DNA of 20,974 nucleotides from an uncultured Candidatus Binatia bacterium (GTDB taxonomy: Bacteria > Desulfobacterota > Binatia > Bin18). Where the stretch lies: positions 1 through 20,974 of the forward strand of contig CBDCCD010000005.1 of the NCBI GenBank assembly GCA_965214605.1, given 5' to 3'. Below, piece by piece: positions 3,096 to 20,832 of this stretch (its first letter is position 1; each line of letters begins with the position of its first letter). Both the position numbers and the translations under genes were made by a program. The notes under the pieces are model-generated. The model had not been told where the DNA came from, ran no database searches, and saw only the letters and a program-made list of their open reading frames with translations.

Positions 3096-6000
3096 TCAGT
3101 ATTCCAGACGCCGGCGAACACTATCCCGATTGTCCCACCACTTCGCATCGGAGTCGTAGCTGGTCGCGATTTGGTCAAGCATGTTCGCGGTGAAGGGGTA
3201 CTCGAAGGCCACCTCCCGGGACCACCTTCGATACTGTTCTGCAAGCTCTCGTTCCTGCGCCCCGCCCTCGTCTCGCCAAGTCGCCCCGCGGGCGTTGTGG
3301 ATACCAACGAGCATCCCGATCGCGATTCCTTGTGATCCTAAATCATCGATGGCTTCCCGCACAGGCTCGCACGGCCAGACTCCGTCAGCGTCAGGCGGAC
3401 AGTGGGAAAGCAGCTGGCCGATCATCTCGTCGCCAATCTCGACACGCCCATACTCCCGCGCGAGCATCCTTACCTGCTCCAGCCACGCATTCAGCTTATC
3501 AAGATCAATGCTGCCATCGGCTTGGGTTCCCGGAATTCGGCTGGCATTTGTGAGGAGTGCATAAGCGGCCCGCGCCAGAGCAGCGCGACTATCCGAATTT
3601 GACAGCTGCCATTCGGCTGGGTCTTTTCCGCCATCGTCGCGCTTGAAGGCGCGTAGCGCCTCCATAAACAATGCGGGCGTCTCCGCAAGCTGCGCTTCCA
3701 AATTGCGAATTCCGTGATTGGAATCCTCGAGCGTCTCGACAAACAGGAACTCTAGTCGGGCAAGATCTTCTCGAGAAGTATCTTCCCGTTGTTCAAGCGT
3801 TTCTAGCGCTTCGGAGACGTAATGCGCATCAAATTGATAGGAACCGGCGGGCTCCGCACCATTGGTCGCCAGCTCCGTCAGCAAGCGAATCATCCGTAAC
3901 GAATCGAGTTGCTTCCAATCCAGGTGCGCCGCGTGAAACGCCGCGCACGGCCGACCTACATTGAGGAGCTCGTCCACGAAAGTTGAGATTGCAGACGCGT
4001 CGCGTCGGCTCGGGTAAGGAGCGACTTCTCGCCAATATCGCTCCTTAAGTCGCTTGGACAGCCTGTCAACCTGTTGCCATGTGCCGTTGTCAAAAGGCGC
4101 GCGGCAGAGCAGCCTGATGCACGAATCCTCATCGGAGCCAAGACCGGCGAGCAACTCCCCGAGAACGCCGTCACGGTTTTGTAACTCCAGCTTGGCCAAA
4201 AATCCGGTGATGCAGTGCCAACACTTGTCCCACAGCTCCTCTGACCGCTCCGCCATCATGCCCCTGAGAAAATCTATTGCCTTCTGAACTCCGGTGCAGA
4301 TTTCAGCCATGTGCCACCCAACGAGGCGCGAGGCGTCGCCACATTGGCACAGCTGCTTAATCCCGACCAGATCGGACTCCGCCCATACCTCCCGCAACGC
4401 CTCACGTCGCTGACGCGCAATTCGCTCTTCTCTCCCTTGGTGACCGAGCTGTTCGTCCTCAAGTTCGTCAGCAGATTCCTCAACCCACTCGCGCAAGAAA
4501 AGCCATTGGTGGCGCACTGCAGGATTCCGGGGTTCGAGCAGCGCATATGCCTGTCGGGCACGCTTCCTCCCGGCGTCGCCAATATCGCGGCGCCGCCGGC
4601 GCCGGGTTAGGGTGCAGCGCCGTATCCGCTCACGCAACGCCGCCTTCCGCATATCGCTCGGTCCGGTGTCAATCCAGGTGCCAATGAGATCCCACACCCG
4701 GTTGCGAAGCTCAGCACTCAGCACCTCAAGGCGGTCGACCAGATCGCCCAGCGTGTGCTCGTCGTGCGCGGGCCAGTCAAGCGCAAGCTCTACCGCCTTA
4801 CGTTGACCCTGCCGCTCCTCGCCAGCCGTGCCGCCCTCAACCGCATCATAGGCATCGGTGCGCCACCTCGGCTTACTGCTGAAACGCTTGATGGTCGAAC
4901 CCGGATTGAATTGATCGACGCAAATCTGCCAGCCGACATCGGGGAATTTCCTCGTGAGCGTCTCAAGCGCCCGATTGCGCTGATCAAGGGAAGCCGCGGT
5001 CTGAGGCATCGGGAACCAGAAAATTGTTTTAAGCGTGCCCATAGGCTTATCGGCCCAGTTGTCATCGATTTGCCACGCGCACAGTTTGGCGAGAATGAAG
5101 GTGACGCGGACCAGCCGCTCCGGTTTCCAGGCGAGCGATTCGAGCGCCCGCAGCATGCCGGAGCGCGGACAATCTCCGAACATTCCGGTATCCGCAGGCG
5201 CGAACAACACAGCAATCTGCGAGTTCTCGCTTTTGAGATCATCTTCGATGATGCTGAGGAATGTATCCGGCACGGCCTCGGCGTATTGCGGTAGATCGCT
5301 CTTCTGAGACAGCCACGTCGATTCGGCCGAGGGCGTCAGCAAGTGGCGGACGACAGCACTAACGTCGGCCTCAAGGTTAATCCCTAGGCGCTCGCCAACG
5401 AGGGCATTGCCGTGTACGGCCAGAAGCACAAGCGTATCGCAGAGGCCCCGACGGAGAGCAGACGAATGGTTCCGGCTCTTTCCGTAGAGATTGGCCGCCC
5501 ACCGCTCATCCTCCGGTAGTTCCAGTGCCGGATCACGCTCTGACAGGACAATTTCAGCGGCGGACAGGAATTTCTTCAAGTCCTCCGCTGTAAGGGTCCG
5601 GTGCGCGGCGTAGAGCGCATCGACCTTGGAGACGACACCCCGGAGATGGCCGATGGACCAGATTGGCGGTTCGTCAATTGTCTGGAGTCGTGCGATCGTT
5701 TGTTCGGCGTCTTCGTAGGGTCTGTCGGTCAGGGAGCGCAGTATCTCCTTGTCCGCCTCGGCCTTGGAATCCCACGCGCCAACGAATATGAACGGGATCA
5801 ACGCCCGAGCGACAGTGTTGTCAGTGGCCCAGGGCGGCACCTTCACAGCCTCAACCTGCGCGAGTCGGCGCCGGAGGATGGTTGGCGAGCGCGCCGATTC
5901 CCTTGCGAGTTGGTCTATCCGGGATTCATTAAGAGCGGGATCGGTGTCGCGTAGGGCTTTACGGAACGGCTCGTAGCCCAGCAGGTCGAGCGCAATGTCC

Positions 6001-7184
6001 GCTTTGCCCGTCACTGTATTGCGGCCGCGTACGATGATCGTGTGGGTCTTCTTGTGAAGTCCGGCCAACACCCTTTCAACCGCTGACGAGGCGACAATCG
6101 CAACGAAGTTCGAAGACAGCCCAGCGATGGTCTCGAAAGCCTCAAGCGAGCGGATGACCACGGCGCGCTCATAGACGCCGGGGCATGAATCCCCCAGCCG
6201 GTCCAGCGCGCAGCTTAGGAAAGCCAGCGCCTCCAAACTCGAGTCGGCAGCAACGACGAAGGGGCTGATTGGAGGTGCTTTCAGCCATTTCTCAAGCTGT
6301 GCCCGGTGCCGTTCGGCGGCGGGGGCGAACAACTCTCTCGACAGCGCGGGCTCAGTGACGGCCGCCCATTCAAGCCAAATCTGGCAAAGGGTCACAACCT
6401 CCTGACCTGCGCCTCTCTGGAACTCTCCCATTCGGGTCTGCGCCGGAATCGACTGTTCCAACCATTGTTCCAGGTCACTGGCGTCGAAGGCGCGCACATC
6501 CTGCCATTCACCGCCCGTCTTCTTGGCCTTGGCCCAGTCGTGCTTGCCAGTCCAATTACGCGGCGTCACGAACACGAACGTCGTGGATTTTCGTTCCTTG
6601 GCGGGAACTCCGGCTGTACGGGCCTGATAGTCCCTGTCCGCTTTGGTTTTGGGTGTCTTGTTGCACCCGAACTCCCAGCCGGACTGTCCGCGCGGTATCC
6701 ACGGTGTCGCCGATCCGGACCTAACCTGGCCATCCCACCCCTTTCGCTGGGAATTGTCAAAGGCCGGAAAATCGACCGCAGTCAGATTGCTGCCAGTCGA
6801 GTGCACCAGCGTGCGCAGCAGCGCCGGAAGCTGCCCTCTCGCGTCGATGGTATCGGCCCACGCGGCGATCTGGCGGGCGGTGATCTTGAGATAAGCAGGT
6901 GCGTACGCGCGGACGGCGATGTCGTCCGCGCGAGCCCGCGCCTCGAATTCCTCGTACCTCGCCTGCATTTCAAGGAGGGCAGAAGCGTCGGCCTGGAACG
7001 CTTTTTCGAACCGCATGGCCATATCGGGCGAGAGCGCGGCTTTGCCGTTCAGAAGATTGGATAAGGCAGGTCGACCCACGCCGAGCATCTCCGCGGCTCT
7101 CTTCACGGAGAGCTCCGCCGGGAGAATCGACAGCTTTATGTGGGTTCCCGGATGGATTGGGGTCTTGTTGCGTCGCGATGCCAT
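3096..7184 (-). CDS. 1362-aa fusion: HigA-family XRE HTH + restriction-endonuclease-like domain + degenerate NTPase-like region + helical C-terminus (putative defence protein)
   Basis: Intact ORF with AGGAGG upstream. N-terminus PIHPGTHIK..LSVKRAAEMLGVGRPALSNLLNGKAALSPDMAMRFEKAF is classic HigA. Next, GWDG..WEFGC..KADRDY..FVFVTPR..VRAFDASDLEQWL resembles a PD-(D/E)xK/Mrr-like domain. No canonical Walker A (VVAADSSLEALAF at the expected position). Confidence 0.8.
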   Translation of the reverse strand: MASRRNKTPIHPGTHIKLSILPAELSVKRAAEMLGVGRPALSNLLNGKAALSPDMAMRFEKAFQADASALLEMQARYEEFEARARADDIAVRAYAPAYLKITARQIAAWADTIDARGQLPALLRTLVHSTGSNLTAVDFPAFDNSQRKGWDGQVRSGSATPWIPRGQSGWEFGCNKTPKTKADRDYQARTAGVPAKERKSTTFVFVTPRNWTGKHDWAKAKKTGGEWQDVRAFDASDLEQWLEQSIPAQTRMGEFQRGAGQEVVTLCQIWLEWAAVTEPALSRELFAPAAERHRAQLEKWLKAPPISPFVVAADSSLEALAFLSCALDRLGDSCPGVYERAVVIRSLEAFETIAGLSSNFVAIVASSAVERVLAGLHKKTHTIIVRGRNTVTGKADIALDLLGYEPFRKALRDTDPALNESRIDQLARESARSPTILRRRLAQVEAVKVPPWATDNTVARALIPFIFVGAWDSKAEADKEILRSLTDRPYEDAEQTIARLQTIDEPPIWSIGHLRGVVSKVDALYAAHRTLTAEDLKKFLSAAEIVLSERDPALELPEDERWAANLYGKSRNHSSALRRGLCDTLVLLAVHGNALVGERLGINLEADVSAVVRHLLTPSAESTWLSQKSDLPQYAEAVPDTFLSIIEDDLKSENSQIAVLFAPADTGMFGDCPRSGMLRALESLAWKPERLVRVTFILAKLCAWQIDDNWADKPMGTLKTIFWFPMPQTAASLDQRNRALETLTRKFPDVGWQICVDQFNPGSTIKRFSSKPRWRTDAYDAVEGGTAGEERQGQRKAVELALDWPAHDEHTLGDLVDRLEVLSAELRNRVWDLIGTWIDTGPSDMRKAALRERIRRCTLTRRRRRRDIGDAGRKRARQAYALLEPRNPAVRHQWLFLREWVEESADELEDEQLGHQGREERIARQRREALREVWAESDLVGIKQLCQCGDASRLVGWHMAEICTGVQKAIDFLRGMMAERSEELWDKCWHCITGFLAKLELQNRDGVLGELLAGLGSDEDSCIRLLCRAPFDNGTWQQVDRLSKRLKERYWREVAPYPSRRDASAISTFVDELLNVGRPCAAFHAAHLDWKQLDSLRMIRLLTELATNGAEPAGSYQFDAHYVSEALETLEQREDTSREDLARLEFLFVETLEDSNHGIRNLEAQLAETPALFMEALRAFKRDDGGKDPAEWQLSNSDSRAALARAAYALLTNASRIPGTQADGSIDLDKLNAWLEQVRMLAREYGRVEIGDEMIGQLLSHCPPDADGVWPCEPVREAIDDLGSQGIAIGMLVGIHNARGATWRDEGGAQERELAEQYRRWSREVAFEYPFTANMLDQIATSYDSDAKWWDNRDSVRRRLEY

Positions 7185-7606: not shown

Positions 7607-7721
7607 GTGCACCCTCGCTGAGGGTTTACGAGCCGGCGCCGATACGTCCGCAACGTAGGAGGAAATATGAAGCGAAGATTGTATGTGCACCCTCGCTGAG
7701 GGTTTACGAGCCGGCGCCGAT
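7607..7721. repeat. Two identical 37-bp direct repeats separated by 41 bp
   Basis: GTGCACCCTCGCTGAGGGTTTACGAGCCGGCGCCGAT at 7607-7643 and 7685-7721; internal hairpin ACCCTC-GCT-GAGGGT. Confidence 0.95.
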
Positions 7722-7750
7722 TGTCGCAGGCGCCAGCAAGGAGGCACCCC

Positions 7751-9045
7751 ATGGCGAAGGGAGTATCGGCGTCGATGTGCATACGCGAATCCCTTTCCGA
7801 CCTGATCGAAGGCCGCCTGTCGTCTGCCGATGGCCGCGCTGCGCTGGTGAATGTGGCGACGCGGCTGATCGTGGAGGAGGCGTTGGAGGCGGAGAGCCGC
7901 GACGCCCTCGGCCGCGACTCCTACGAGCACGGCGCGTCCCCCGGGCCAAGGCTGGCGCAACGGCGTGCGCATGGGCCGTCTGAAGACGGCGGAAGGGTTG
8001 GTGGACGATGCGGCGCCGCAGAATGCCGGTCGTGAGGAGCCGTTTCGCTCGGAAATGCGCGAGAACCTGAAGGGCCGCACCCTGGCCTTGAGGACTTGGC
8101 GGTGGAGCTTCTAGCGCACGGCCTGAGGGTGCGCGACCTCGAAGACGCCTTCCGGGACGAGAGAGGGCGGCTGTTGCTGTCGCGCACGGGAGTATCAGAG
8201 AGCGGCTGTAGGCGAACTCCCCGGAGTTCGCCGTCCGCGATCTGTCGGAGTACGAACATCGCCTACCTGCTCGTGGACGGTATTGCCGAGCACATCCGGC
8301 CGGGGCAGAAGCGCGAGCCGGTTCTGGCGGCCTGGGGCTTCACCGCGAGTGGCGCCAAGGTTCTGCTGTACCTGATGGCTGGCTCCAAAGAGGACGCCAA
8401 GACGGCGAGCGCCTTCTTTCGGGACATGCGCGGGCGCGGCGATCCCCTGCTGGTGGTCTCGGACGGTGCGGCGGGCATCGTCAAGGCGATTGAGGCCTGC
8501 TTCCCGCGATCGGTGCGCCAGCGCTGCCTCGCCCATCGGATACGCCACCTAGCGGCCAAGGTACCGGAAGACCTCTGGCCCGAGTTTAAAGCCCGAGTCA
8601 CCGCCGTCTACCAAGCGCCGTCGCGCGCCGTAGCCCGCGATCTCGCCTCCGGCCTGGTCGCGGACGATGAGGCCGAACTGCTCCGCGCGATCGCCTGCTT
8701 CATGGATGACTTCGAAGCCTGCATCGCGCACCTGCGCATGCCCATCACCTACCGCCGCGCGATCCAGACCACGAACCTCCTTGAGCGCCTGTTTGTCGAG
8801 GAGCGCCGGCGGCTCAAGATCATCCCCAACGCCTTCGGCGAGAAGGCCGTCCTCCAGCTCCTGTTCGGCGCCAGGATCCGTGCCGCCGAGCGTTAGCAGG
8901 TCATCAAGGTCAGCGAGCTCAAGCGCCGTCGGATGCGCGCAGTCAGAGAGGAGCTCGACCGAGAATACGAGGCCGCAACATCCTCGAAGCGAAGACCTCA
9001 GCTCCGGCACACCAAGCCAAAATATCCAGCACCGCTCGGACTTGA
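7751..9045 (+). pseudogene. IS256-family transposase, frameshifted
   Basis: GGAGG RBS, ATG 7751. Motifs LIVEEALEAE, YLLVDG, LVVSDGAAG, QRCLAH, TTNLLERLFVEERRR. Frameshifts near 7945, 8085 and 8200-8255; premature TAG at 8894-8896. Confidence 0.88.
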
Positions 9046-9880: not shown

Positions 9881-11019
9881 TTGTCGGTCCTCCGCAGGGT
9901 TCGGAAGTAGACAGGCTACCGTATGCTCGCAGTGCAAGCAAGAACGCCCGGCTCGCTGACACTTCCGGCGACGTGGACAGATACCACGTTCCGGGGCTTT
10001 CCCGTGAAGAAGATCTCTCCCGCAACCGGCGTACCAGCCTCGGGGCGGATCGCCGCCGCTTCGCCCGGCAGCCTGGCATCCGCGCCTTCGCGCACTTCAT
10101 GTTGTCTTGCTTCGTGCGAAAGCGAGAGCGCGCCCGAGCAGACAGGTCCACAAACGTGGGAAACGTCGTACCGAAGGCCGTTTTCCGGGCCTTGCGCCGT
10201 GCCTATCCTTGTCCCCATGCCAAGCCTTGGAAGCAGTCTCATTCGTGGCGCGGCCGGGCCGGGGCGACGGTGGAATCGGGGCAAGCGGCCTCCCTACTAG
10301 CATCAATCGGCATGAGGCGGAATCCGAGGCATCGCGGGTCAAATCCGCCCCGGCGGCGGTCGGGTCGCGCTGCTGGTGATGCCGGTGGCGGAGATCGAAG
10401 ATGTTGAGACCGTTCCCGCGCACGGCGAGCTCCCCACGATGCTGAAAGCCGCCGGACCCGGAGCGGACACGGTCGAAAGCCCGCCAGCGTTGTCGGCTGC
10501 CGGTTCAGGAGTTGGCAGCCCGTCGACAGGACGCGGAAGGATATTATGGATGGCGGCTGACTGACGCGGACGTTAGAACGGTCACAGACCGGTTCCCAGC
10601 GCTGACCAAGCGCGGCGAGCTTGCCAGGTTTCGGAATCGCAAATGGGGGGGCGGTCATTGCGAACGCCTCAATGTGCGCCGGACAAGTCCTGGGTGCCGC
10701 CGTCCTAGCACAGTGGAGCTGTCGGTTTTCGCATTGTCTTGTTCCATCTTCCGATCTCGGGGCGACGAATGATCTCGTTCGCCCTCTTGCGTAGCCCTGA
10801 GCATTTCTACGCATGTAAATTGTCAAGATATTGATATTCATCTGAATTTCTGGTTGAAGCGCTTCCGTATTAACGATGTATTCATGCATGTGAGGGCGTT
10901 GGGGGCGCTGCCGAGGATTGCTCGGCAACAACCACGACGGGCCGGGGCCAAGCCGGGGGGCCGGCAGGTGCGAGGCGGTGTTCCCGCCGAGGTCGCAACC
11001 GGGAGATAGCCGCGTTGGG

Positions 11020-11524
11020 AAACCGTGCATATCACGGACGCGCCGCACCAGATGGGGGGCCGCCTTAGATCCCGAACTCTGGCGGCAGGCGATTGTCGTG
11101 GGGCTGGCAGGCGCGGCCTTGATGGCGATACTAGCCCGTGGCGTCACGCTGGTGCGCGGCGCCACGGGTCATGATTGGTATGCCGCGGCCAGACTCACGG
11201 CCGCGGAACTGCTGATCGCCGCCAGCTTCGACGGGACAGCACCAACCGAATACCGCACCGCTGACGGTGTCATCCCAGACCGTCAGTCGCTATGATTTCA
11301 CCCTCATCCTTGAGGCACGGTGGGCGCAGGAGGATATCTTCGCCGCGTCCTGGGACGGGGCGACGCTGGGCGCACTGTCCGGGCTAAGCGGTGCGCTGCT
11401 CTGTCTGGCGCTGATCCGGCGGCGGGAGGACGAGCGCCACATCCCGTGCGCCGCCTGCGAACCGGGGCCCACTCAACCGCCTGAGGCGCGGGAGCGGTTC
11501 GCGCGGCTGGCGAAGCCAGGCTGA
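11020..11524 (+). pseudogene. Membrane-protein remnant resembling the N-terminus of a TraD-like type IV coupling protein
   Basis: Two hydrophobic segments (QAIVVGLAGAALMAILA; GATLGALSGLSGALLCLALIRRR) split by a frameshift near 11275. Assignment rests on topology and the TrwC remnant downstream; no ATPase motifs remain. Confidence 0.35.
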
Positions 11525-11722
11525 GGCGCATCGCCACCTGCGACCGGTGCGGCAGTTCGCACATCGGCGGACCGGCCGCCCGGATCGGATGCCCACCCGC
11601 CCGCGAAACCGGGGCCCCCATCAAGATCTGTAATGAGGCTCGCAGAAGCTAAGGATCACGCGTCGGAACCCGCTAGCCGCGAGCGCCTGGGATCAGCAGG
11701 ACAAGTCAAAACTCGGGAAATG

Positions 11723-11753
11723 CTTTCCGGATTCCATGATCGAGAGCGATTAA
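11723..11753 (+). promoter_or_regulatory. Putative alternative-sigma promoter, copy 1 (upstream of the sigma gene)
   Basis: CTTTCCGGATTCC-atgatcgaga-GCGATTAA; same motif and spacing as 16712-16742. Confidence 0.7.
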
Positions 11754-11814
11754 TAGGGTGAGCGTGACGAATATCCGCTCACGAACCGCTGCAGCACTGC
11801 GAAGAGGGAGCGAG

Positions 11815-12603
11815 ATGGCTCGACCGTTGACGAAAACCAAAGTGGAAGGCTCGCTGTATACGCGTCCGACGGCAGTCGAGGCTCAGATCGATGAGGCCGT
11901 CTGCCTCTCACAATCGGAGTTGCAGAGCCGTCTGTCGATCGCCGATCGCAATGCCCCCGGCTACCTGTGTTCCGAGTGTCTCGTCCATCTTGTTCGACGG
12001 GGGCGGCGGTCTGACGACCAACAGCTGATGAGCGCTGTGTTGCCAGTGTTGCTTGGACGATGTGAAAGGAGTCTCTTGATTAATGTCCCGGACGGCGGAC
12101 TGCCGGACGCTGCAAGCCTTCGGCAAGAAATTCTGGAAGACCTGACGGATCTTTTCGTGACAGATGGAACGGGCGACTCCCCCGACGAGCTTGATTTCTA
12201 CGAATGTCGGTTCAACAAAGCATTCAAAGTCCTGCGTATCAATGCGGTTCGTCGAGATGCTCGGCAGCAGAAGCGCAGCATTGCTCTGGTCGATTTGCCG
12301 CCATCCAAAGCGGCAATTGAGCCAGACGTTTGTGAGGATGCTTCCGCCCGAGTTTCAGACGCATTCAAGATTCCGCCGCAGGAGCGGGCTGTTTTCCGGG
12401 AACAGTTTGTGAAAGCGATCGAAGCTCTGCCAGCCGATGAGTGCGCCGCCATCATCCTCGTCCATGTCCTTGGGTACAAGGTAGAGTCTGAGGATCCCAA
12501 GGAGGAAACGGCCGCGACGCGGTGCAACTGCACCGGACGAACAATTCGCAATCGACTCGCACGGGCCGCTGCGGCGCTTTCCCATTTTAAGGAGGACCTA
12601 TGA
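11815..12603 (+). CDS. ECF-like (sigma-24 type) RNA polymerase sigma factor with N-terminal extension
   Basis: GAGGGAG RBS then ATG 11815 (ORF track uses GTG 11758). Region 2-like RFNKAFKVLRINAVRRDAR; region 4-like KAIEALPADECAAIILVHVLG..TAATRCNCTGRTIRNRLARAAAALS. Confidence 0.72.
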   Translation: MARPLTKTKVEGSLYTRPTAVEAQIDEAVCLSQSELQSRLSIADRNAPGYLCSECLVHLVRRGRRSDDQQLMSAVLPVLLGRCERSLLINVPDGGLPDAASLRQEILEDLTDLFVTDGTGDSPDELDFYECRFNKAFKVLRINAVRRDARQQKRSIALVDLPPSKAAIEPDVCEDASARVSDAFKIPPQERAVFREQFVKAIEALPADECAAIILVHVLGYKVESEDPKEETAATRCNCTGRTIRNRLARAAAALSHFKEDL

Positions 12604-13256
12604 ACCAGACTCTCTGCGCAAGCCCGCGCGCATTGCGGGAAGCCCTGTATGTCCTGTCCACCGCGCAGGACGTGCCGGACGCGAAACTGTTGGACGACGT
12701 CGTTCGCCGGTATCCTGAATTCGGAGAAGAGCTGACCGAGTTCGCGATCGCTATTGCGGTAGACGCCCTGCGAGGTGAGCGCGTCGTGGAAGATGCGGAA
12801 GGGGCGATCGGTCCGAGTGCCATCAGCCCGGCTGTCAGCCGGGCGATGAGCCATTTCCAAAACCGACTGCATGCTGTGACGACCGATTCGGCTAAGGCGA
12901 GGAGTACACGTACGGATGTCGCCGATGCAGCCAACCCCTTCTTGGGTTTACCGCGTAATGAATTCCGCGCTTTCGCCGCGCGGTTGAACGCGAATGCCGT
13001 CTTCGCTGGCAAGCTGCGTGACCGTCAAATCGACCCAGCTACCATGACGCCCGGTTTTCAAAGACGGATAGCAGACGAGTTGAAGGCGCCGCTTGATGTC
13101 GTGGGGGCACACTTCGCTGCGCGTCCGACAGCCCCAGCCAGGCAGTTTTTCAAAGCAGAAGGCAAGCCATCAACTGGTGCACAACAAAGTTTCGAGGAGG
13201 CAGTACGAAGCTCGGGTTTGAACGAGGTTCAGCAGAATTCTCTGTTGGAGCTCTGA
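12600..13256 (+). CDS. 218-aa conserved-looking protein; putative anti-sigma with XRE-like HTH
   Basis: AAGGAGG RBS and ATGA overlap with the sigma gene. N-terminal LDDVVRRYPEFGEELTEF helix; HTH-like FRAFAARLNANAVFAGKLRDRQI..RIADELKAP. Function is inference. Confidence 0.7.
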   Translation: MNQTLCASPRALREALYVLSTAQDVPDAKLLDDVVRRYPEFGEELTEFAIAIAVDALRGERVVEDAEGAIGPSAISPAVSRAMSHFQNRLHAVTTDSAKARSTRTDVADAANPFLGLPRNEFRAFAARLNANAVFAGKLRDRQIDPATMTPGFQRRIADELKAPLDVVGAHFAARPTAPARQFFKAEGKPSTGAQQSFEEAVRSSGLNEVQQNSLLEL

Positions 13257-13260
13257 ACTC

Positions 13261-16200
13261 ATGGATCCCTTCGAGTCGATCCGTTCCAAGGCAGCGGCAC
13301 TTCATGAGGAGTTGCTCTCGGAAGGCAAAGACCCGTTGGAACCGCTCGCACTTGTGGAAGCTGCTGTAGGGCGCCGCGATCTGGATCTCGTATGGCTGTC
13401 GCAAGGTGACCCGGCACTGAAGGGCGCGCGGGCACTATACGACGACCAGGGCGGAACGATCTGCTGCGAAGAGGACGGCGACCTAGCAAACCGAGCGCTA
13501 CTAGTGGCGCACGAACTTGGACATTCCGAACTTCACGCTGGCTCCGTGACTTGCGCTGGATCCGATATCGATCCCTCCCGGACCACCGAGGTTGCGCCGG
13601 TTGGTCTACAGCGCGTCGAGGATTACGGTGCGCGCGAGCGGCGCGAACTGCAGGCGAATGTTTACGCGCGCGAGCTTCTGCTCCCACGCGCCTTTGTGCA
13701 CGAGCTACACCTCGAGCAGAATCTGACCGCCGCAGCGATCGCAGACCGAATGAAGTTCCCCGTGGCGCTGGTTCGTCAACAAATGTTCGACGCATTGCTT
13801 CTGCCGCCCATCGTGGTCGACGATGAACCAACGCCAGAGCTACCGTCCTCGCACAAGCCCGATGTCTCCCAAGAGCGGGCTGCGGCGCACCGCGCCAAAC
13901 CCTTTCAGTTACAGGCAGGACCCGGAACCGGCAAAACGCGAACGCTGGTGAAACGCGTATTCTCACTGCTGGCCGAAGGCACCGATCCAGCCGCGATCCT
14001 CATTCTGACTTTCTCTAATCGCGCCGCTGGCGAGCTGTTGGAGCGACTGATGGCGACCGCCCCAGAGGCGGCGCCAAAACTCTGGATCGGAACATTTCAT
14101 GCCTTCGGTCTCGATCTTGTGCGGCGCTACCACGACAAGCTCGAACTCGCGCCGAATCCCTCGCTTTTCGACCGTAGTGACGCGATTGAAATCCTCGAAG
14201 ACATTTTGCCTACGCTCCCGTTAGTCCATTACTGTAACCTCTGGGATCCGGCGATGGTGCTCCGGGATATCGTCGGTGCGATCTCTCGTGCAAAGGATGA
14301 AATGGTCGGGCCGGACCGCTACCGGATGTTGGCGAAGGCGATGGAAGCGGATACGGCTGATCATGATGAAGATGCGCGAATCGCCGCGGCCAAATGCCTC
14401 GAAATCGCGAAAGTCTACGATCTCTATGAAGAGGCGCTACGCAAACATGGGGGCGTGGACTTTGGCGACCTGATCATGCGCCCTGCGCGTTTGCTGGAAG
14501 ACGATGAAACCGCGCGCATTGGCGTGCGACTTCGCCACCGGCACGTGCTCGTCGACGAATATCAGGACGTGAACCGGGCCAGCGCGCTCCTGCTGAAGAT
14601 GGTGGCGGGAGATGGCGAGCGGCTATGGGTCGTCGGCGATGCGCGGCAGTCGATCTATCGCTTTCGTGGCGCTTCCTCCGAAAACATGGTTCGGTTTAGC
14701 TCCGATTATCCTGGCGCTGTAACGGATCAGCTGGGCGTCAATTATCGATCAACCGAGCAGATCGTGCATAGCTTTGTCGCGGTGACGCCACATATGGGCT
14801 CGTCAAAGGGCATGCTGAGTCTCGAATTGGAGGCCGATCGGAGCGGAAGGTCGAACCATCCCGAGCTTCGCCGTTTCGAGACGCTGAATGATGAAGCCGG
14901 CGGCGTGGCGGCCAGTATCCGTCAACTTGAGGGCGCGGGGGTGAGGTTTCGCGACCAAGCGGTCCTGTGTCGGACCAACCGGCAACTGAACGAAATTGCC
15001 TCGGCGCTTGAGGTACGCGGCATCCCCGTCCTTCACCTTGGCAGCTTGTTTGAACGGGAGGAGGTTCGTGGCCTGCTGGCCGTACTTAGCTTAGCCGTTG
15101 ACCCGTTTGGCGACGCGCTGGTTAGGGTCGGCGCTATGCCGCGATATGGTTTGACGCTACAGGATGTGTACTGCGTGAGCCGATTTCTTCGGTCCCTTCA
15201 CAAACCCGCGTTGGCAGGGCTCGCGGAGGCGGTGCAAGCACCCGGTCTGTCGACATCAGGGCGGAAAGGCATTGAGCGCCTTGCTGCTGATATGAATGGC
15301 CTGTGCTCAAGTGCCAACGCCTGGGAGTTTCTCGCCACCTTTCTGCTCGATCATACGAACCTGGCCAAGGAGTTTGGTCGCGCCACGTCCGTAACGGAGC
15401 GCATGCGTGCTGTTGCAGTCTGGCAATTCCTCAACTTTGTGCGCGAGCAGAGCCCGGTGGGAATGGGCCTTCCGATCCAACGCATCCTTGATCGGGTGCG
15501 ACAGCTGTTGTTGTTGGCCCAGGAGCGCGATCTGAGACAAGTCCCGGCCGCGGCACTGCGTCTTGATGCCGTTCGGTTGATGACCGTCCACGGCAGCAAG
15601 GGGCTTGAATTCGAGGCTGTGCACCTCCCTGGACTCACGGTTGCGAGTTTCCCGAGTTCCAACCGCGGCGAGCGTTGTCCGCCACCCAGGGGCATGATCG
15701 ATGGATATGGCAATGCCTCGCCAAAGGAAGTGGCGAAGCGCGCACATATGGACGAGGAGGAATGCCTGTTCTTCGTGGCGCTATCACGAGCCCGGACACA
15801 CCTCCGTCTCTACCATGCGCGAAAGCAGCCAAATGGAAACAATTGCTCCCCCTCGCCGTTTCTGAAGTTGCTCTCCGCGGGGCATCTCCACGAGGTGACC
15901 GACCCTCCAAAGCTTCCGCGTCCCGCAAACGGTCCGCGGCTGCAGCCAATCGCAATCACCCGGCAAACGGATTGGGCGGTTACAGACAGCCGTCTGGGCT
16001 CGTACGAGAAATGTCCGCGACGCTTCCTTTATACACATGTTCTGGGATTGGGCGGTGCTCGCAAGCCCACTGCGTTCTCACGCACGCATGATTGTCTCTA
16101 CGCCTTGCTGCGCTGGCTCGCCGATGCCCGGCGTATGGGCGAGCCTAGCTTGGACGAGGCAGAAACCGCCTTCGAGGCAATCTGGCAAGCGCACGGGCCG

Positions 16201-16695
16201 GCAGAGCATGCCTTCGCAGCCGATTACCGCAGGCTCGCGTCCCGGCTGATTGCGGCTTTGCTCAAGGCGGGGGCTGGGCAAAGGTTCCGCGACACGCAAC
16301 CCCTTGCCATCGACTTTCCCAACGGGCGGGTACTCGTAGAGCCGAATGAATTGGCGGAAATGCCCGATGGCACCGTCATCATTCGCCGGGTTCGCACGGG
16401 CTACAAGCGGAGTGACGAGTACGATCGGTTGGAATACACCCTTTACCGCCTTGTGGCCCAGAGCCAGTTTGGCGGTAGCGCCACTGTGCGGGCGTTGCAC
16501 CTGACCGACGAAACCCATGAGCCCGTCGTGATCAGCGGGGCCAAGCTCGGCAACCGACAGAAGAAGATCGATACCATGTTGGGCGCTATCGCCTCGGGCG
16601 AGTTTCCGCCGGAGGTGGACGCCGTGACCTGTCCCCGGTGTCCTCACTTCTTCATTTGCCCCTCAGTGCCGAACGGGGGCCTTCAGCTCGACTGA
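13261..16695 (+). CDS. ImmA/IrrE metallopeptidase - UvrD/SF1A helicase - PD-(D/E)xK-like Fe-S domain fusion (1144 aa)
   Basis: HELGH (aa 84-88) and ELQANVYARELLLP. Helicase motifs AGPGTGKT, TFSNRAA, GTFHAFG, VDEYQD, VGDARQSIYRFRGA, NYRS, TVHGSKGLEF, FVALSRAR. C-terminal CPRRF and CPRCPHFFIC. Confidence 0.92.
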   Translation: MDPFESIRSKAAALHEELLSEGKDPLEPLALVEAAVGRRDLDLVWLSQGDPALKGARALYDDQGGTICCEEDGDLANRALLVAHELGHSELHAGSVTCAGSDIDPSRTTEVAPVGLQRVEDYGARERRELQANVYARELLLPRAFVHELHLEQNLTAAAIADRMKFPVALVRQQMFDALLLPPIVVDDEPTPELPSSHKPDVSQERAAAHRAKPFQLQAGPGTGKTRTLVKRVFSLLAEGTDPAAILILTFSNRAAGELLERLMATAPEAAPKLWIGTFHAFGLDLVRRYHDKLELAPNPSLFDRSDAIEILEDILPTLPLVHYCNLWDPAMVLRDIVGAISRAKDEMVGPDRYRMLAKAMEADTADHDEDARIAAAKCLEIAKVYDLYEEALRKHGGVDFGDLIMRPARLLEDDETARIGVRLRHRHVLVDEYQDVNRASALLLKMVAGDGERLWVVGDARQSIYRFRGASSENMVRFSSDYPGAVTDQLGVNYRSTEQIVHSFVAVTPHMGSSKGMLSLELEADRSGRSNHPELRRFETLNDEAGGVAASIRQLEGAGVRFRDQAVLCRTNRQLNEIASALEVRGIPVLHLGSLFEREEVRGLLAVLSLAVDPFGDALVRVGAMPRYGLTLQDVYCVSRFLRSLHKPALAGLAEAVQAPGLSTSGRKGIERLAADMNGLCSSANAWEFLATFLLDHTNLAKEFGRATSVTERMRAVAVWQFLNFVREQSPVGMGLPIQRILDRVRQLLLLAQERDLRQVPAAALRLDAVRLMTVHGSKGLEFEAVHLPGLTVASFPSSNRGERCPPPRGMIDGYGNASPKEVAKRAHMDEEECLFFVALSRARTHLRLYHARKQPNGNNCSPSPFLKLLSAGHLHEVTDPPKLPRPANGPRLQPIAITRQTDWAVTDSRLGSYEKCPRRFLYTHVLGLGGARKPTAFSRTHDCLYALLRWLADARRMGEPSLDEAETAFEAIWQAHGPAEHAFAADYRRLASRLIAALLKAGAGQRFRDTQPLAIDFPNGRVLVEPNELAEMPDGTVIIRRVRTGYKRSDEYDRLEYTLYRLVAQSQFGGSATVRALHLTDETHEPVVISGAKLGNRQKKIDTMLGAIASGEFPPEVDAVTCPRCPHFFICPSVPNGGLQLD

Positions 16696-16711
16696 TTTCG
16701 CCCGGAGTAGC

Positions 16712-16742
16712 CTTTCCGGGTTCCTGCTCTACTGGCGATCAA
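16712..16742 (+). promoter_or_regulatory. Putative alternative-sigma promoter, copy 2 (upstream of the bil operon)
   Basis: CTTTCCGGGTTCC-tgctctactg-GCGATCAA in the 108-bp gap between the helicase gene and bilA. Confidence 0.7.
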
Positions 16743-16803
16743 GCAGGCAAGGGACAAAGTCAGGCAATTCCGCCTCGCACATCGATCCCCGGAGTACAAG
16801 GCC

Positions 16804-17313
16804 ATGAAACCAATTGATCTTTTTTGTCAGGGCGAAGGCATCGGCGAGATCGTGCATATCGAACTCGAGCTGGACGCGACCTTCGGTCTCCTCAAGGCCC
16901 GCCTCGTCGAAGAGTACCGGATCCCTAGGGATGCACTACTCTTCATTGAGGACAAGGACGAGCCGATTGACGAGACCGTGCTCGTCAAGGACCATGCAAC
17001 CGCCACGGGGCTGAAAGTCCACATCCACCGCTGCCGCCACGTCAAGGTGACCGTCACGTTTAACGGGAAGACGGCGGAGTGCCGCTTCCCGCCGAGTGCC
17101 ACTGTCGCGCGGGTGAAGCTCTGGGCGGCCGAAAAGGAGTTCGGCATGTCTGAAGACGAGGCTGGCGAGCACGTGTTGCAGATCGAGGGCGCGCATGAAC
17201 GGCCGGCGCCTGGGACGCATATCGGCGTGCTGACCAATGACAACGCCGACAGCCTATCCTTCGATCTAGTCCCGGACGAACGAGTCAATGGCGCGGCCAA
17301 GGGTGTCGCGTGA
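16804..17313 (+). CDS. bilA: Tandem ubiquitin-like (ISG15-like) protein of a type I Bil system
   Basis: GGAG RBS; two beta-grasp-like halves; C-terminal [11 protein letters not shown] (Gly163) plus 6-aa tail; first gene of the Ubl-E2-JAB-E1 array. Confidence 0.85.
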
Positions 17314-17783
17314 TCGCCCCCGATCAGAGAGCCTTCGAGGCGGACGTGGCGAAGGCCGCGTTCCGCCTTGGACAGTCGGAGGGCCGCTGGCGGCTGATCC
17401 GCGTGGCGTGGCCCTTCGCGTTCTTGGGCGTGGTCGCCAAGGATGACCGGGAATATGTGCTTCGCTTGAACTGCACCGGTTACCCACAGGCAGCGCCGAC
17501 CGGTGGCCCATGGAACATGAAGACGGACAAGATTCTCGCGTTCGACCTGTGGCCGAGGGGTCAAGGCGGTCGTGTCTCCGCGGTCTTCCGCACCGACTGG
17601 AAGAATGGCAGCGCTCTCTACCTGCCTTGTGATCGTGAAAGTCTCGTTGGTCACGACAACTGGCGCCACGAGATGCCATCGAAGATCTGGCGTCCCACCG
17701 ATGGAATCGTCCAGTACCTGGAGCTCGTTCATGAACTTCTTCAATCCCGTGATTATGCGGCGCCTCATCGCTCCGCGGCATGA
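17310..17783 (+). CDS. bilB: E2-like conjugating enzyme
   Basis: GTGA overlap with bilA; UBC-like [14 protein letters not shown]; candidate catalytic Cys107 in LYLPCDR. Confidence 0.83.
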
Positions 17784-18252
17784 GCTGTCATGCTCCTGGC
17801 TTCTGTGGCGCCGTCTCAAGACAGAGCTGCGTGAACGTGGCCACCGTTGCCGTCGGGAGAGCGGGGCGTTCTTGCTTGGACATCGCGAAGGCGGCAGCGC
17901 CCGGATTGTGGACTTCGTGCTTTATGATGATCTCGATCCGCACGCGCTTGACAGCGGCATCGTTCGGTTTGATGGGCGGTATTTCAGCGACCTCTGGGTG
18001 ATTTGCAAATCACGCGGCCTGACGGTCGTGGCCGATGTTCATGTGCATCCGGGCGGATCGGGCCAAAGTGATTCCGACCGCGATCACCCCATGATCTCTC
18101 AGGCCGGACACATCGCGCTGATATTGCCTCGTTTCGCGGCTGGTGCCCAGCCGCGGTGCGACATCGGCATCTATCGCTACTTGAGCGGCAAGAAGTGGGA
18201 GATGGTGCGGCCGTCTTCGCGCCGCCAATTCTTTCACATCGGCTTGATCTAG
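17731..18252 (+). CDS. bilC: JAB/JAMM metalloprotease (deubiquitinase-like)
   Basis: RESGAFLLG (catalytic Glu) and [15 protein letters not shown] (HxH..S..D). Likely start ATG 17731 after GGAG, or 17755; overlaps the bilB 3' end. Confidence 0.9.
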
Positions 18253-18266
18253 AGAGGTGAAGAGTC

Positions 18267-19679
18267 GTGAAAGCGCAGATTTCAGCGGATTCACTTCATC
18301 GGCTAGTCAAACAGGCCATCGACAACGGGACCGCCGCTAGTCTCGCTGAGGCCAAGGCGCTATTTCGGGGCTATCGGCTGCGAGTGGAGACCGATCCCGC
18401 TGATGTCTCCGATCCAGTGCATCAGGCGGCATTGCTGACGACTGTCGCCCTCGGCCGTCGGGTATTTCTTGGTGGAGTCACGGTCACCGGACCGCTCGAC
18501 GCACCGCTAATGCTGGCGATGCCGCTGGGGCGCACGATGAGGGACGCGGTTCAGGCGCTGGGCGGCATACTTGGAGATGTTGCTGAGGAGATGCCGACGA
18601 TCGTGATCGGGGGCGGTCCACGGCAGCGGCGAGCAGGCTTTTGTGTACGCACCGCAGCGGCAGGATGGCGTGGTGGCATCTTACCGATCCATTCAGAGTT
18701 GCAGCCCGGCGGTGAATGCGCGATGCCGTTGAGCGGGATGCTTGCGGCTGGATTAGCCGTCAACGAGGCGTTTCTTTTTGTAAACGGCGGGATGCCCGTG
18801 GCTGGGCGACAGGCGTTAGGGCTCTCGTTGTGGTGCCCTGGTCGGGAGGCTGACTGGTTGCAGCCTGACGAAAATGAGCCGGTGCTAGCCTACCTGCCCT
18901 CGCGCCTGTGGCTGATCGGTCTGGGACATCTGGGTCAGGCATACCTATGGGGGCTTGGCTTGCTGCCTTATCGGGATCCTGCTGCCGTGGCGCTAGTCCT
19001 CCAGGATATCGACGTTATCACCGAATCGACAGAGAGCACCTCCATCCTCACCGACGCCGCCATGATCGGCCAAAGAAAGACACGGGCAATGGCGGCTTGG
19101 GCCGAGCGGCGCGGGTTCGCGACTTCTCTCCAAGAGCGGGTGTTCGACGCGGATTTCACGCGGCAGGCGGAGGAACCGGCGGTTGCGCTTTGCGGGCTTG
19201 ATAATGCAGCAGGTCGACGGGCGCTGGATCAAGTTGGCTTTGACCTGATCGTAGAAGCCGGTTTGGGACGCGGACACCGTGATTTCCGCACCATGCGCCT
19301 TCACGTCCTGCCGGGCCAGCGCCCCGCCGCAGACATCTGGAAGCAGACAAGCGAAGGAGAAAAGGCCGAGGACCGGCCCGCGTATGTCAAGCTCATGGAG
19401 GACGGTGTGTTAGATCAATGCGGTATGACACTGCTCGCCGGCAAGGCGGTCGGCGCGCCGTTCGTGGGCTCGATCGCAGCAACATTGGCGTTGTCGGAGG
19501 TGCTGCGGCTGCTGCACGACGGGGTGGTTTACCAGCTAATTGATCTCGACCTTCTCAGTCTCGATCAGCGCTTGGTCTCTCGGCATAGCAATGATTTTGC
19601 TAATCTTAACCCAGGATTCACGATGGCGAACGCGCGGGCTGAGGCAATAGCAGGTCGTACGGCAAAGGCCGTCAGTTAG
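18267..19679 (+). CDS. bilD: E1-like (ThiF family) activating enzyme
   Basis: GAGG RBS, GTG start. LIGLGHLG nucleotide-binding loop, LQDID, GQRKT, CGLDNAAGRR; candidate catalytic Cys385 in DQCG; N-terminal inactive-adenylation-like half. Confidence 0.88.
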   Translation: MKAQISADSLHRLVKQAIDNGTAASLAEAKALFRGYRLRVETDPADVSDPVHQAALLTTVALGRRVFLGGVTVTGPLDAPLMLAMPLGRTMRDAVQALGGILGDVAEEMPTIVIGGGPRQRRAGFCVRTAAAGWRGGILPIHSELQPGGECAMPLSGMLAAGLAVNEAFLFVNGGMPVAGRQALGLSLWCPGREADWLQPDENEPVLAYLPSRLWLIGLGHLGQAYLWGLGLLPYRDPAAVALVLQDIDVITESTESTSILTDAAMIGQRKTRAMAAWAERRGFATSLQERVFDADFTRQAEEPAVALCGLDNAAGRRALDQVGFDLIVEAGLGRGHRDFRTMRLHVLPGQRPAADIWKQTSEGEKAEDRPAYVKLMEDGVLDQCGMTLLAGKAVGAPFVGSIAATLALSEVLRLLHDGVVYQLIDLDLLSLDQRLVSRHSNDFANLNPGFTMANARAEAIAGRTAKAVS

Positions 19680-19953
19680 GGGGCAGGGAGCGAGTCTCGT
19701 ATAGTGGGGATGGTTTCCGGCCCGAACGGTGGATGGAAAGACCGGGGCGCCACGGCGCCGGAACTGTCCGGAGATTCGGCAGCGGAATCCGGTGATGCAG
19801 AGAAGCACGGTGTGCCTGCCAGTGCTTCCGCCGCCGAAGGCTCCACCCATCCTGGTAAGCTGGAAACCCTAGCTTGCGAGACGGACGAGGCCGAGGAGCG
19901 GGAAGCGGCCCCCGACCTTGACGAGCGCCCGGCCTGCGACTAGGTCTGGTCTG

Positions 19954-20485
19954 ATGGTCGCCTGATCGGCGCGGTGGCGAGCCCGTCCCAGGGTGCCAGC
20001 TACTATGGGAAGGACGGATCCGGGCGGCGGCTCAGGTGTCGGATCGGCGACGGTGAGATCCGCCACCGCCCCGGCCGCGACCTGACGTTTTCCGCGCCCA
20101 AGTCCGTATCCCTTGCGGCGCTCGTTGGCGGCGACGAACGCATTGTCGAGGCCTGTGATTGGGCGGTCGGGCGCGCGGCCGGCTGGTTCGAGAAGAAAGC
20201 CGCCGAGACCCGGGTACAGGACGGGACGACCGGCTGTATGGTCCGGGCCGGGGACCAGAAGACCGTGATCGCCGCCTTCCGGCACCCAGACCTCCGGGAA
20301 CCTCGACCCGGCGCTGCACCCCCATTCAGTGATCGCCACATGCTGCTCGGCGCCGATGCGAAGTGGCGGACGATGGCGAACGAGAGCCTTCGCGCCTCCA
20401 AGATGCTGCTGAACGCCATGTATCGGAGCGAGCTCGCGAGCGAGTTGGCGGAGCTCGGCTACGGCATTGAGAAGACCCATGCCGA
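19954..20485 (+). pseudogene. trwC: MobF/TrwC conjugative relaxase N-terminal remnant
   Basis: ATG 19954 then, after a frameshift, IGAVASPSQGASYYGKDG; HRPGRDLTFSAPKSVS; VIAAFRH; scrambled HUH region; KWRTMANE..MYRSELA..LGY. Internal deletion and no helicase domain. Confidence 0.85.
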
Positions 20486-20832
20486 AATGGCGTTGCTGGT
20501 CCTTGACGGATCGGAAGCGTTCGAGTTTTTGACGAGGTCCCGGAAGGGGTCTTTTGAGATTTCGAAACAAGCGGTTTTGGCGACGAGGTCGTCGCTGCGA
20601 TAGCAGTCCTTGGTCTGATCAAATCAAAAAAGTGGACAGGAAAAAGCAGATCGTTTGGCAGCCTTATTACTTCATGTCGAACGCGCGGCCAGGTTCATCA
20701 TATGGATATGGAGGGCACCCAGGACAGGATGCTATGGCAGTCAAAAAGAAGCTCCTAAAACTCTCTGCGGTTGAATGCCAGGAGGAGCTCTTGAGCTTCT
20801 CAATCCGTTTGACCTCACCCTAGGCGGCAGTC

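Follow-up and report, generated by a model that had tools for sequence, protein, structure and literature searches.

What is the function of a bipartite motif that stands, in nearly identical form, before both a sigma-like gene and the ubiquitin-like gene bilA on a contig of an uncultured Candidatus Binatia bacterium (CBDCCD010000005.1, positions 1 to 20,974, analyzed over its whole length and called the window below)? A first-pass annotation of these letters had read the pair as the promoter of an autoregulating extracytoplasmic function (ECF) sigma factor, directly linking that factor to bil transcription. We put the probability at roughly 85% that the motif, with the core TTTCCG-N17-CGATY, serves the divergent ECF-like sigma factor encoded next to it as cognate -35/-10 promoter. 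This reading of the sequence is supported by the conservation of the motif across homologous loci, its absence from Bil loci with CapH/CapP-type regulators, parallel changes at paired sites, co-variation with a residue in sigma region 4.2 and the predicted fold of the protein. The proposed link to bil also stands: PADLOC recovers bilA-bilB-bilC-bilD in this order downstream of the second copy, and by its gene content the operon is a standard type II Bil system, predicted to be antiphage. All seven genes from the sigma gene to bilD lie on one strand (Table 1).

The two known copies, P1 and P3, were found where the annotation had placed them, with arms identical at 19 of 21 positions, unrelated spacers (0/10 identical) and an ATG (at 11815 and 16804) 92 nucleotides (nt) after each motif start. 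The 92-nt distance is exact in the window but only typical across homologs, where P1 is located between -60 and -101 relative to the gene, with one outlier at -173, and P3 between -78 and -95, with an outlier at -137. Similarly, both arms are real but the core conserved in homologs is narrower than first described, TTTCCG(G)-spacer-CGAT(Y)(A), with the TTCC arm kept only in part; 17 nt separate TTTCCG from CGAT, and the resulting consensus has the geometry of a -35/-10 pair. A structured leader is a weak candidate for the cause of the fixed distance, as homologs show mild structure in the P3 leaders (mean z -1.15, n=50) and on average none in the P1 leaders (-0.19, n=62); the P3 leader of the window spans 16748-16803.

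The annotation counted two copies and overlooked a third, P2, inside the sigma gene. With a position weight matrix trained without the window, P3 (16712; 34.3 bits) and P1 (11723; 32.6 bits) rank first and second in the whole 4.37-Mb host genome, of which the window is contig C6, followed by C1:4247496 (20.4 bits) and P2 (12392; 19.1 bits). C1:4247496, the one other host site scoring above the weakest training sites, lies antisense inside an open reading frame (ORF) and was rejected as a regulon member; so was C1:2643177, with a copy on contig C5, a site without CGAT that falls within the 3' end of a coding sequence. The search for further regulon members thus found no wider regulon in the host genome, and with both extra candidates rejected, the regulon looks island-local. 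Contig C5 (G000) is itself a near-copy of C1:2636000-2645500, probably a strain variant in the assembly.

Table 1. Predicted promoters and genes of the locus, in coordinates of the window
Feature	Position	Strand	Details
P1	11723..11753	+	-35 TTTCCG 11724-11729, 17-nt spacer, -10 CGATTA 11747-11752; predicted sigma-dependent promoter upstream of the sigma gene, start expected at ~11759
Divergent ECF-like sigma factor	11815..12603	+	262 amino acids (aa); N-terminal extension, sigma2 ~50-160, linker, sigma4 ~188-262
P2	12393..12421	+	overlaps codons F194-R195 and A201-I202 of the sigma gene; 19.1 bits; start expected at ~12428
orf2	12600..13256	+	218 aa; predicted anti-sigma domain ~10-93, XRE/CapH-like helix-turn-helix (HTH) ~112-175, tail
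IrrE/ImmA (M78) metalloprotease-UvrD helicase-PD-(D/E)XK-like fusion	13261..16695	+	1144 aa; domains from Pfam
P3	16712..16742	+	-35 16713-16718, -10 CGATCA 16736-16741; predicted sigma-dependent promoter upstream of bilA, start expected at ~16748
bilA, ubiquitin-like protein	16804..17313	+	PADLOC BilA E 1e-54
bilB, E2	17310..17783	+	PADLOC BilB E 8e-63
bilC, JAB deubiquitinase	17731..18252	+	start 17731 or 17755; PADLOC BilC E 2e-65; Pfam Prok-JAB
bilD, E1	18267..19679	+	PADLOC BilD E 8.5e-172

Further evidence comes from homologous loci, in which the annotation had proposed to look for the motif. We collected 12 loci from GTDB genomes, 80 of 133 from metagenomes and 20 plasmid regions, hand-picked from 78 and 76 matching records; together with the window, 112 had a sigma match. 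Removal of 23 loci at least 90% identical to others left 89 nonredundant ones, and L014, a 42-residue fragment, was dropped before the counts. We assigned the loci manually to clade I (74) or clade II (15), a division supported at 96 in a quick tree of 33 sigmas, from which the too short L114 was left out. Scanning up to 200 nt upstream of the genes for TT[TA]CCG-N17-CGAT with one mismatch allowed, we found the motif conserved: P3 precedes the ubiquitin-like gene in 51/52 testable loci (38/39 in clade I and 13/13 in clade II), and P1 precedes the sigma gene in 62/63 of clade I. The same pattern occurs in 65/2560 shuffles, 1/128 reverse complements and 51/676 windows of helicase coding sequence; it was derived from these same, related loci, so that the counts and z-values overstate independence. 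The predicted autoregulation fits clade I but is not universal, P1 being found in only 1/13 loci of the sister clade. Roughly half of ECF sigma factors autoregulate, and their promoters have spacers of 16-18 nt (PMC7776599), which makes a clade without P1 unsurprising.

Information content is about 2 bits per base in the arms of the motif and low in the spacer, whose sequence is near random even between P1 and P3 of one locus, and the motif persists across sigmas down to ~25% identity. Where it changes, it changes in parallel: Xanthomonas and Variovorax have CGACT at both P1 and P3, Aminobacter has a T-rich -35 at both sites, and clade II has TTACCG at both P2 and P3. In contrast, none of the five Bil loci examined in which the regulator is stand-alone and of CapH/CapP type or XRE has the motif, their best matches having 2.5-3.5 mismatches; by eye, several of the CapH/CapP loci show TTGAC-type hexamers instead. 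orf2 adjoins the sigma gene in 75/76 testable loci, and a ubiquitin-like gene lies downstream of the helicase in 49/50; these 49 are type II BilA-like (37), type II BubA-like (11) and, in one case, a multiubiquitin followed by a separate E2. Sister loci of the window are among those carrying type II Bub. As 71/72 testable loci retain P1 or P2, orf2 and the sensor-like fusion are nearly always downstream of a motif copy.

The module is found in Alpha-, Beta- and Gammaproteobacteria, on a cyanobacterial plasmid and in metagenome-assembled genomes labeled Acidobacteriota and delta proteobacterium; a search of 300 other genomes of the host's phylum gave no match, and there is no homolog among the phage records. 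A search for RNA evidence listed no data set holding the locus; contigs of four runs from one study match it without differences and may be its source. Individual loci vary. A Variovorax plasmid (L136:2046-2200) carries the variant motif three times in tandem before the sigma gene, and two loci have an extra copy (L008:8148, 30.4 bits, and L009:8155) before a 500-aa gene just upstream of sigma. This gene, which by eye we take to be caspase-like, is a possible fourth regulon member. On a Cupriavidus plasmid (L019:12001-15380), sigma, orf2, P1, P3 and bil are present, but the flank that was fetched contains no protease-helicase. The helicase, its remnant or sigma precedes bil in 11 of the 14 plasmid BilD loci examined, from 37 records, and in two of four alphaproteobacterial BilA genomes, one of them a search centre. 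The query biases this sample, but the module may be a common Bil regulator. Plasmid annotations label many sigma homologs "DNA-binding response regulator" or hypothetical, for which reason the module has perhaps been overlooked.

The sigma-like protein belongs to a family of 1242 clusters at 50% identity, and its modeled structure supports a sigma2+sigma4 fold. The AlphaFold2 (AF2) model has a mean confidence (pLDDT) of 89, and all listed Foldseek matches are to sigma factors or to complexes containing one, the top alignments to ECF sigmas covering both domains over 200-236 columns; the top VIA matches are likewise sigma factors. The sigma4 HTH domain aligns in VIA with region 4 of E. coli sigmaE (Z 9.9, root-mean-square deviation 1.6 over 67 residues) and gives profile matches to ECF structures at E 3e-7, and full-length alignments to ECFs extend over residues 50-262 (Z 8-9; sigma2 alone Z 5.4-5.6). 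There is no sigma3 domain in the model, residues 161-187 forming a low-confidence linker with one short helix. In addition, a bipartite promoter with a 16-18 nt spacer before the own or partner gene, as expected of ECF factors, is seen in silico. Residue 242 of the protein co-varies with the third base of the -35 element across 78 loci: arginine with T in 65, lysine with A in 11, glutamine with A in one and serine with T in one. Residue 242 aligns with the glutamate that begins the recognition helix in region 4.2 of the host primary sigma, presumably the equivalent of E585 in E. coli numbering. In sigma70, E585 contacts position -33 (PMC2613000).

P2 lies 207 nt before orf2 and is the predicted promoter of orf2 and the protease-helicase. 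In homologs it is under synonymous-site constraint. All 15 clade II loci have a perfect P2, and the three wobble bases it requires are present in 15/15 each, where the synonymous usage of these loci would predict 4.9, 6.4 and 4.4; they are the sole fully conserved wobble columns among 259, while the amino acids vary (A/S/T at 201, for instance). In clade I, P2 bases are still enriched (39/64 against 12.1 expected and 49/70 against 25.9).

The protein encoded next, orf2, is predicted to be the partner of the sigma factor. The modeled complex scores 0.85, compared with 0.00 for the best of three controls, with the mark for such scores being reached by 116/157 solved pairs and 2/215 mismatched pairs. 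At least 96% of contacts are shared between runs, and the partner pLDDT is at least 75. The prediction supports binding of orf2 to sigma through residues 10-93 only, the fourth helix lying on sigma2 (orf2 79-86 with sigma2 76-115) and the earlier helices on sigma4 (orf2 28 and 50 with sigma4 214-219), with helix 1 also touching sigma2. With helices at 9-22, 28-37, 39-66 and 77-99, orf2 has the predicted layout of a class I anti-sigma factor: a three-helix bundle, a linker and a fourth helix. In the class I layout, the fourth helix sits on sigma2 and the first helices on sigma4 (PMC7406223). Searches of orf2 against Pfam, PDB sequences and folds gave no relevant match to a known anti-sigma domain, though the missing fold match for its N-terminal domain is no evidence of a new fold. 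The second domain, residues 112-175, aligns with XRE HTHs at VIA Z 4.9-6.0 over 56-69 residues, a range shared by common helical matches, and with CapH (7t5u) and DdrO (6rnz) at Z 4.9; in an Atlas neighbor cluster, 54% of members have HTH_31. Finally, the tail contains a conserved [FY]K pair in 68/76 homologs, F184-K185 in the window, and an aromatic-basic pair ([FY]K or FR) in 70/76, making F184-K185 a candidate cleavage site by analogy with CapH. L019, the sole locus without the protease-helicase in its fetched flank, also lacks the [FY]K pair (n=1).

The fusion protein encoded between orf2 and P3 is predicted to be a sensor-protease. Its protease domain matches Pfam M78 (E 3e-8), UvrD follows directly at residue 203, and the C-terminal PD-(D/E)XK-like domain has four cysteines; HExxH, Walker A, DE[YF]QD and the four cysteines are invariant in 53/53 full-length fusions. 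At the nuclease-motif position, where a PD-(D/E)XK nuclease has D-x-K, the consensus is R-V-R; this C-terminal domain is therefore likely to bind DNA but not to cleave it.

Several observations weigh against the promoter of an ECF-like sigma as the explanation, or narrow it. On the protein side, Pfam Sigma70_r4_2 matches below cutoff (E 5.5e-5), the Pfam scan gives no match to sigma2, and none of the Foldseek matches reaches E 0.001. Such a protein could bind the motif and be no true sigma, acting as a DNA-bound activator or repressor beside the housekeeping RNA polymerase, and the ~50-residue extension at its N-terminus, the seven residues inserted into its sigma4 HTH and the modest sigma2-only structural matches would suit this role. 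However, the top structural alignments cover both domains, -35-like and -10-like elements are both conserved and at the spacing of a holoenzyme, and the partner is predicted to bind sigma2 and sigma4 in the manner of an anti-sigma factor; we regard a non-sigma role as decidedly unlikely. The complex prediction has its own caveat, as its high score may stem from a resemblance to ECF/anti-sigma structures already solved, and the candidate cut at 184/185 is far from the sigma-binding domain at 10-93, leaving release by cleavage unexplained. On the DNA side, P2 is within one mismatch in only 36/70 clade I loci. Besides the overstated independence of the conservation counts, the seven helicase-preceded Bil loci found by BilA and BilD searches include three without a recognizable site, next to one with a perfect site and three with variants, which counts against universality. 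The switch at residue 242 needs only two changes on the tree, and the starred branches force only one; L018 sits within the lysine clade and yet has arginine and T, but with a support of only 90-93 for its nesting, the switch may have a single origin.

The co-variation is weaker also for another reason. Sigma and orf2 are co-inherited, and clade-level co-variation alone therefore cannot tell which of the two reads the DNA. The motif could instead be an operator for orf2, as a CapH-type repressor, with the operon transcribed by the housekeeping sigma and the sigma-like gene doing something else. The XRE-like HTH of orf2, with its similarity to CapH and DdrO, its place next to an M78 protease as in CapH/CapP (10.1101/2022.04.27.489752) and its co-inheritance with the motif all agree with this. 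An operator would not, however, account for an asymmetric motif found on the sense strand (1/128 on the reverse), with a 17-nt spacer and at promoter distance from the genes, nor for a variable base that tracks a residue of sigma region 4.2, and the N-terminus of orf2 is predicted to bind sigma. A search for E. coli-type sigma70 promoters in 11300-20000, admittedly a weak test, gave none where 1.9 were expected, and the TTGAC-type hexamers seen by eye occur in CapH/CapP Bil loci by contrast. We consider an operator very unlikely. That the motif is a local duplication or a functionless chance similarity is practically negligible as an explanation: it could appeal to a few copies in one window and nothing beyond, but with an IUPAC pattern and up to three mismatches, the window has two matches and 100 dinucleotide shuffles none, and the motif is kept across highly diverged sigmas, so that the conservation counts refute chance. 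Duplication is ruled out by the spacers, from which the first-pass annotation had argued, and by the low identity of the P1 and P3 flanks (6/20 upstream and 11/30 downstream).

If the motif is the promoter of an ECF-like sigma, the genes between P1 and bilD could form a switch. At rest, orf2 would hold sigma inactive through its N-terminal four-helix domain. Single-stranded DNA or DNA ends, arising from phage infection or DNA damage, would engage the UvrD motor, which, to judge from CapP and IrrE, would license the IrrE-type protease to cut orf2 at [FY]K in the tail, as CapP cuts CapH. The cut orf2 would be destabilized and lost or become monomeric, and the freed sigma would transcribe bilABCD from P3, as the output, and its own gene from P1, in positive autoregulation. 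P2 would yield more orf2 and sensor, a negative feedback that resets the switch. For the whole chain, from DNA sensing through orf2 cleavage and sigma release to Bil or Bub transcription, we would wager at slightly better than even odds. With similar, modest confidence, we see here a further family of controllers that regulate ubiquitin-like immunity by activation, defined by a helicase-IrrE protease, an anti-sigma/XRE hybrid, a sigma with three promoters and a code of one residue for one base. A large fraction of type II Bil operons, along with many Bub operons, may be regulated by this module.

In the remainder of the window, upstream of the unit, are a frameshifted Schlafen/AlbA_2 gene (197-1696, + strand), a 1362-aa protein (3096-7184, - strand) that begins with a HigA-type HTH (TIGR02607, above cutoff) and otherwise matches no family, a frameshifted Mutator-family transposase (7721-8896, +) and short ORFs without family (10918-11524, +); downstream is a TrwC relaxase fragment (19974-20603, +). 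The relaxase fragment and the short upstream ORFs suggest that the unit sits in a decayed conjugative element. The host chromosome also holds a broken type II Bub remnant (C1:2102322-2103723; E2-E1 and DUF6527 pieces), which shows neither a match to a ubiquitin-like protein nor a strong motif site. Lacking a ubiquitin-like gene, the remnant was rejected as a control. Another DUF6527 piece lies at C1:3884420-3884695.

Parts of this arrangement are known from elsewhere. The output operon is the same type II BilABCD as described by Chambers et al. and Hoer et al. (preprints), and type II Bub, carried by sister loci of the module, is described by Ye et al. and Gong et al. So far, switching of Bil and Bub is known only beside CapW, CapH+CapP or CapK+CapS, all of them repressors. 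One of the systems nearest to it is CapH+CapP, together with IrrE/DdrO and ImmA/ImmR, in which an M78 HExxH protease and an XRE-HTH protein stand side by side upstream of an immune operon, as do the M78 fusion and orf2, with its XRE-like HTH, here. CapP cuts CapH at Phe82-Arg83 (10.1101/2022.04.27.489752), and to this Phe-Arg site may correspond the conserved aromatic-basic pair in the tail of orf2. The differences are substantial, however. CapP is a stand-alone protein with a C-terminal GAF domain, whereas in this locus the protease shares one chain with a UvrD helicase and a nuclease-like domain; orf2 adds a predicted anti-sigma domain to the HTH; CapH/CapP are divergent and share the promoter region with the operon, whereas here all genes have the same direction; and the output of CapH/CapP is derepression, whereas here it is apparently activation from a private promoter. 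In the literature searched we found no description of the module, which unsearched supplements or subscription journals could hold; the sole related remark is one sentence of Lau (10.1101/2022.04.27.489752), according to which 24 systems of the CBASS type (cyclic-oligonucleotide-based antiphage signaling) encode a sigma70-family factor beside capH and capP.

The other half of the arrangement resembles ECF/anti-sigma control. SigH-RshA of C. glutamicum (PMC3489674), as is predicted here, pairs a sigma2+sigma4 protein with an overlapping downstream partner, and its PrshA, which lies within the sigma gene, depends on sigma and drives expression of the anti-sigma, is a counterpart of the predicted P2. 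The ASDI model (PMC7406223), three helices and a linker followed by a fourth helix contacting sigma2, matches the predicted orf2. In place of a membrane or zinc sensor, orf2 ends in an XRE-like HTH, and it has no Pfam anti-sigma match; a term search of the main text and part of the supplement of the ECF reclassification (Casas-Pastor 2021) found neither the motif nor its neighbors. In Myxococcus xanthus, the ECF sigma/anti-sigma pair DdvS/DdvA (PMC11506125) also controls an antiphage island, but DdvA is a transmembrane TPR-CHAT protein acting on CBASS and CRISPR, whereas orf2 appears soluble and its presumed signal is cytoplasmic DNA. What we offer for a widespread module, apparently of the activator type, is an exact promoter consensus with predicted starts, a sigma with its presumed specificity residue and a predicted anti-sigma with a candidate site of cleavage. 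If the proposal is true, it provides an orthogonal promoter-sigma pair with natural variants and could explain the lack of phenotype in Bub operons cloned without the module. The motif is very probably a sigma-specific promoter, and the module to which it belongs would govern Bil and Bub operons by a hybrid of ECF/anti-sigma and CapH/CapP control that the literature searched does not describe; if so, it joins two well-studied logics, ECF/anti-sigma sequestration and IrrE-type proteolysis in response to DNA damage.

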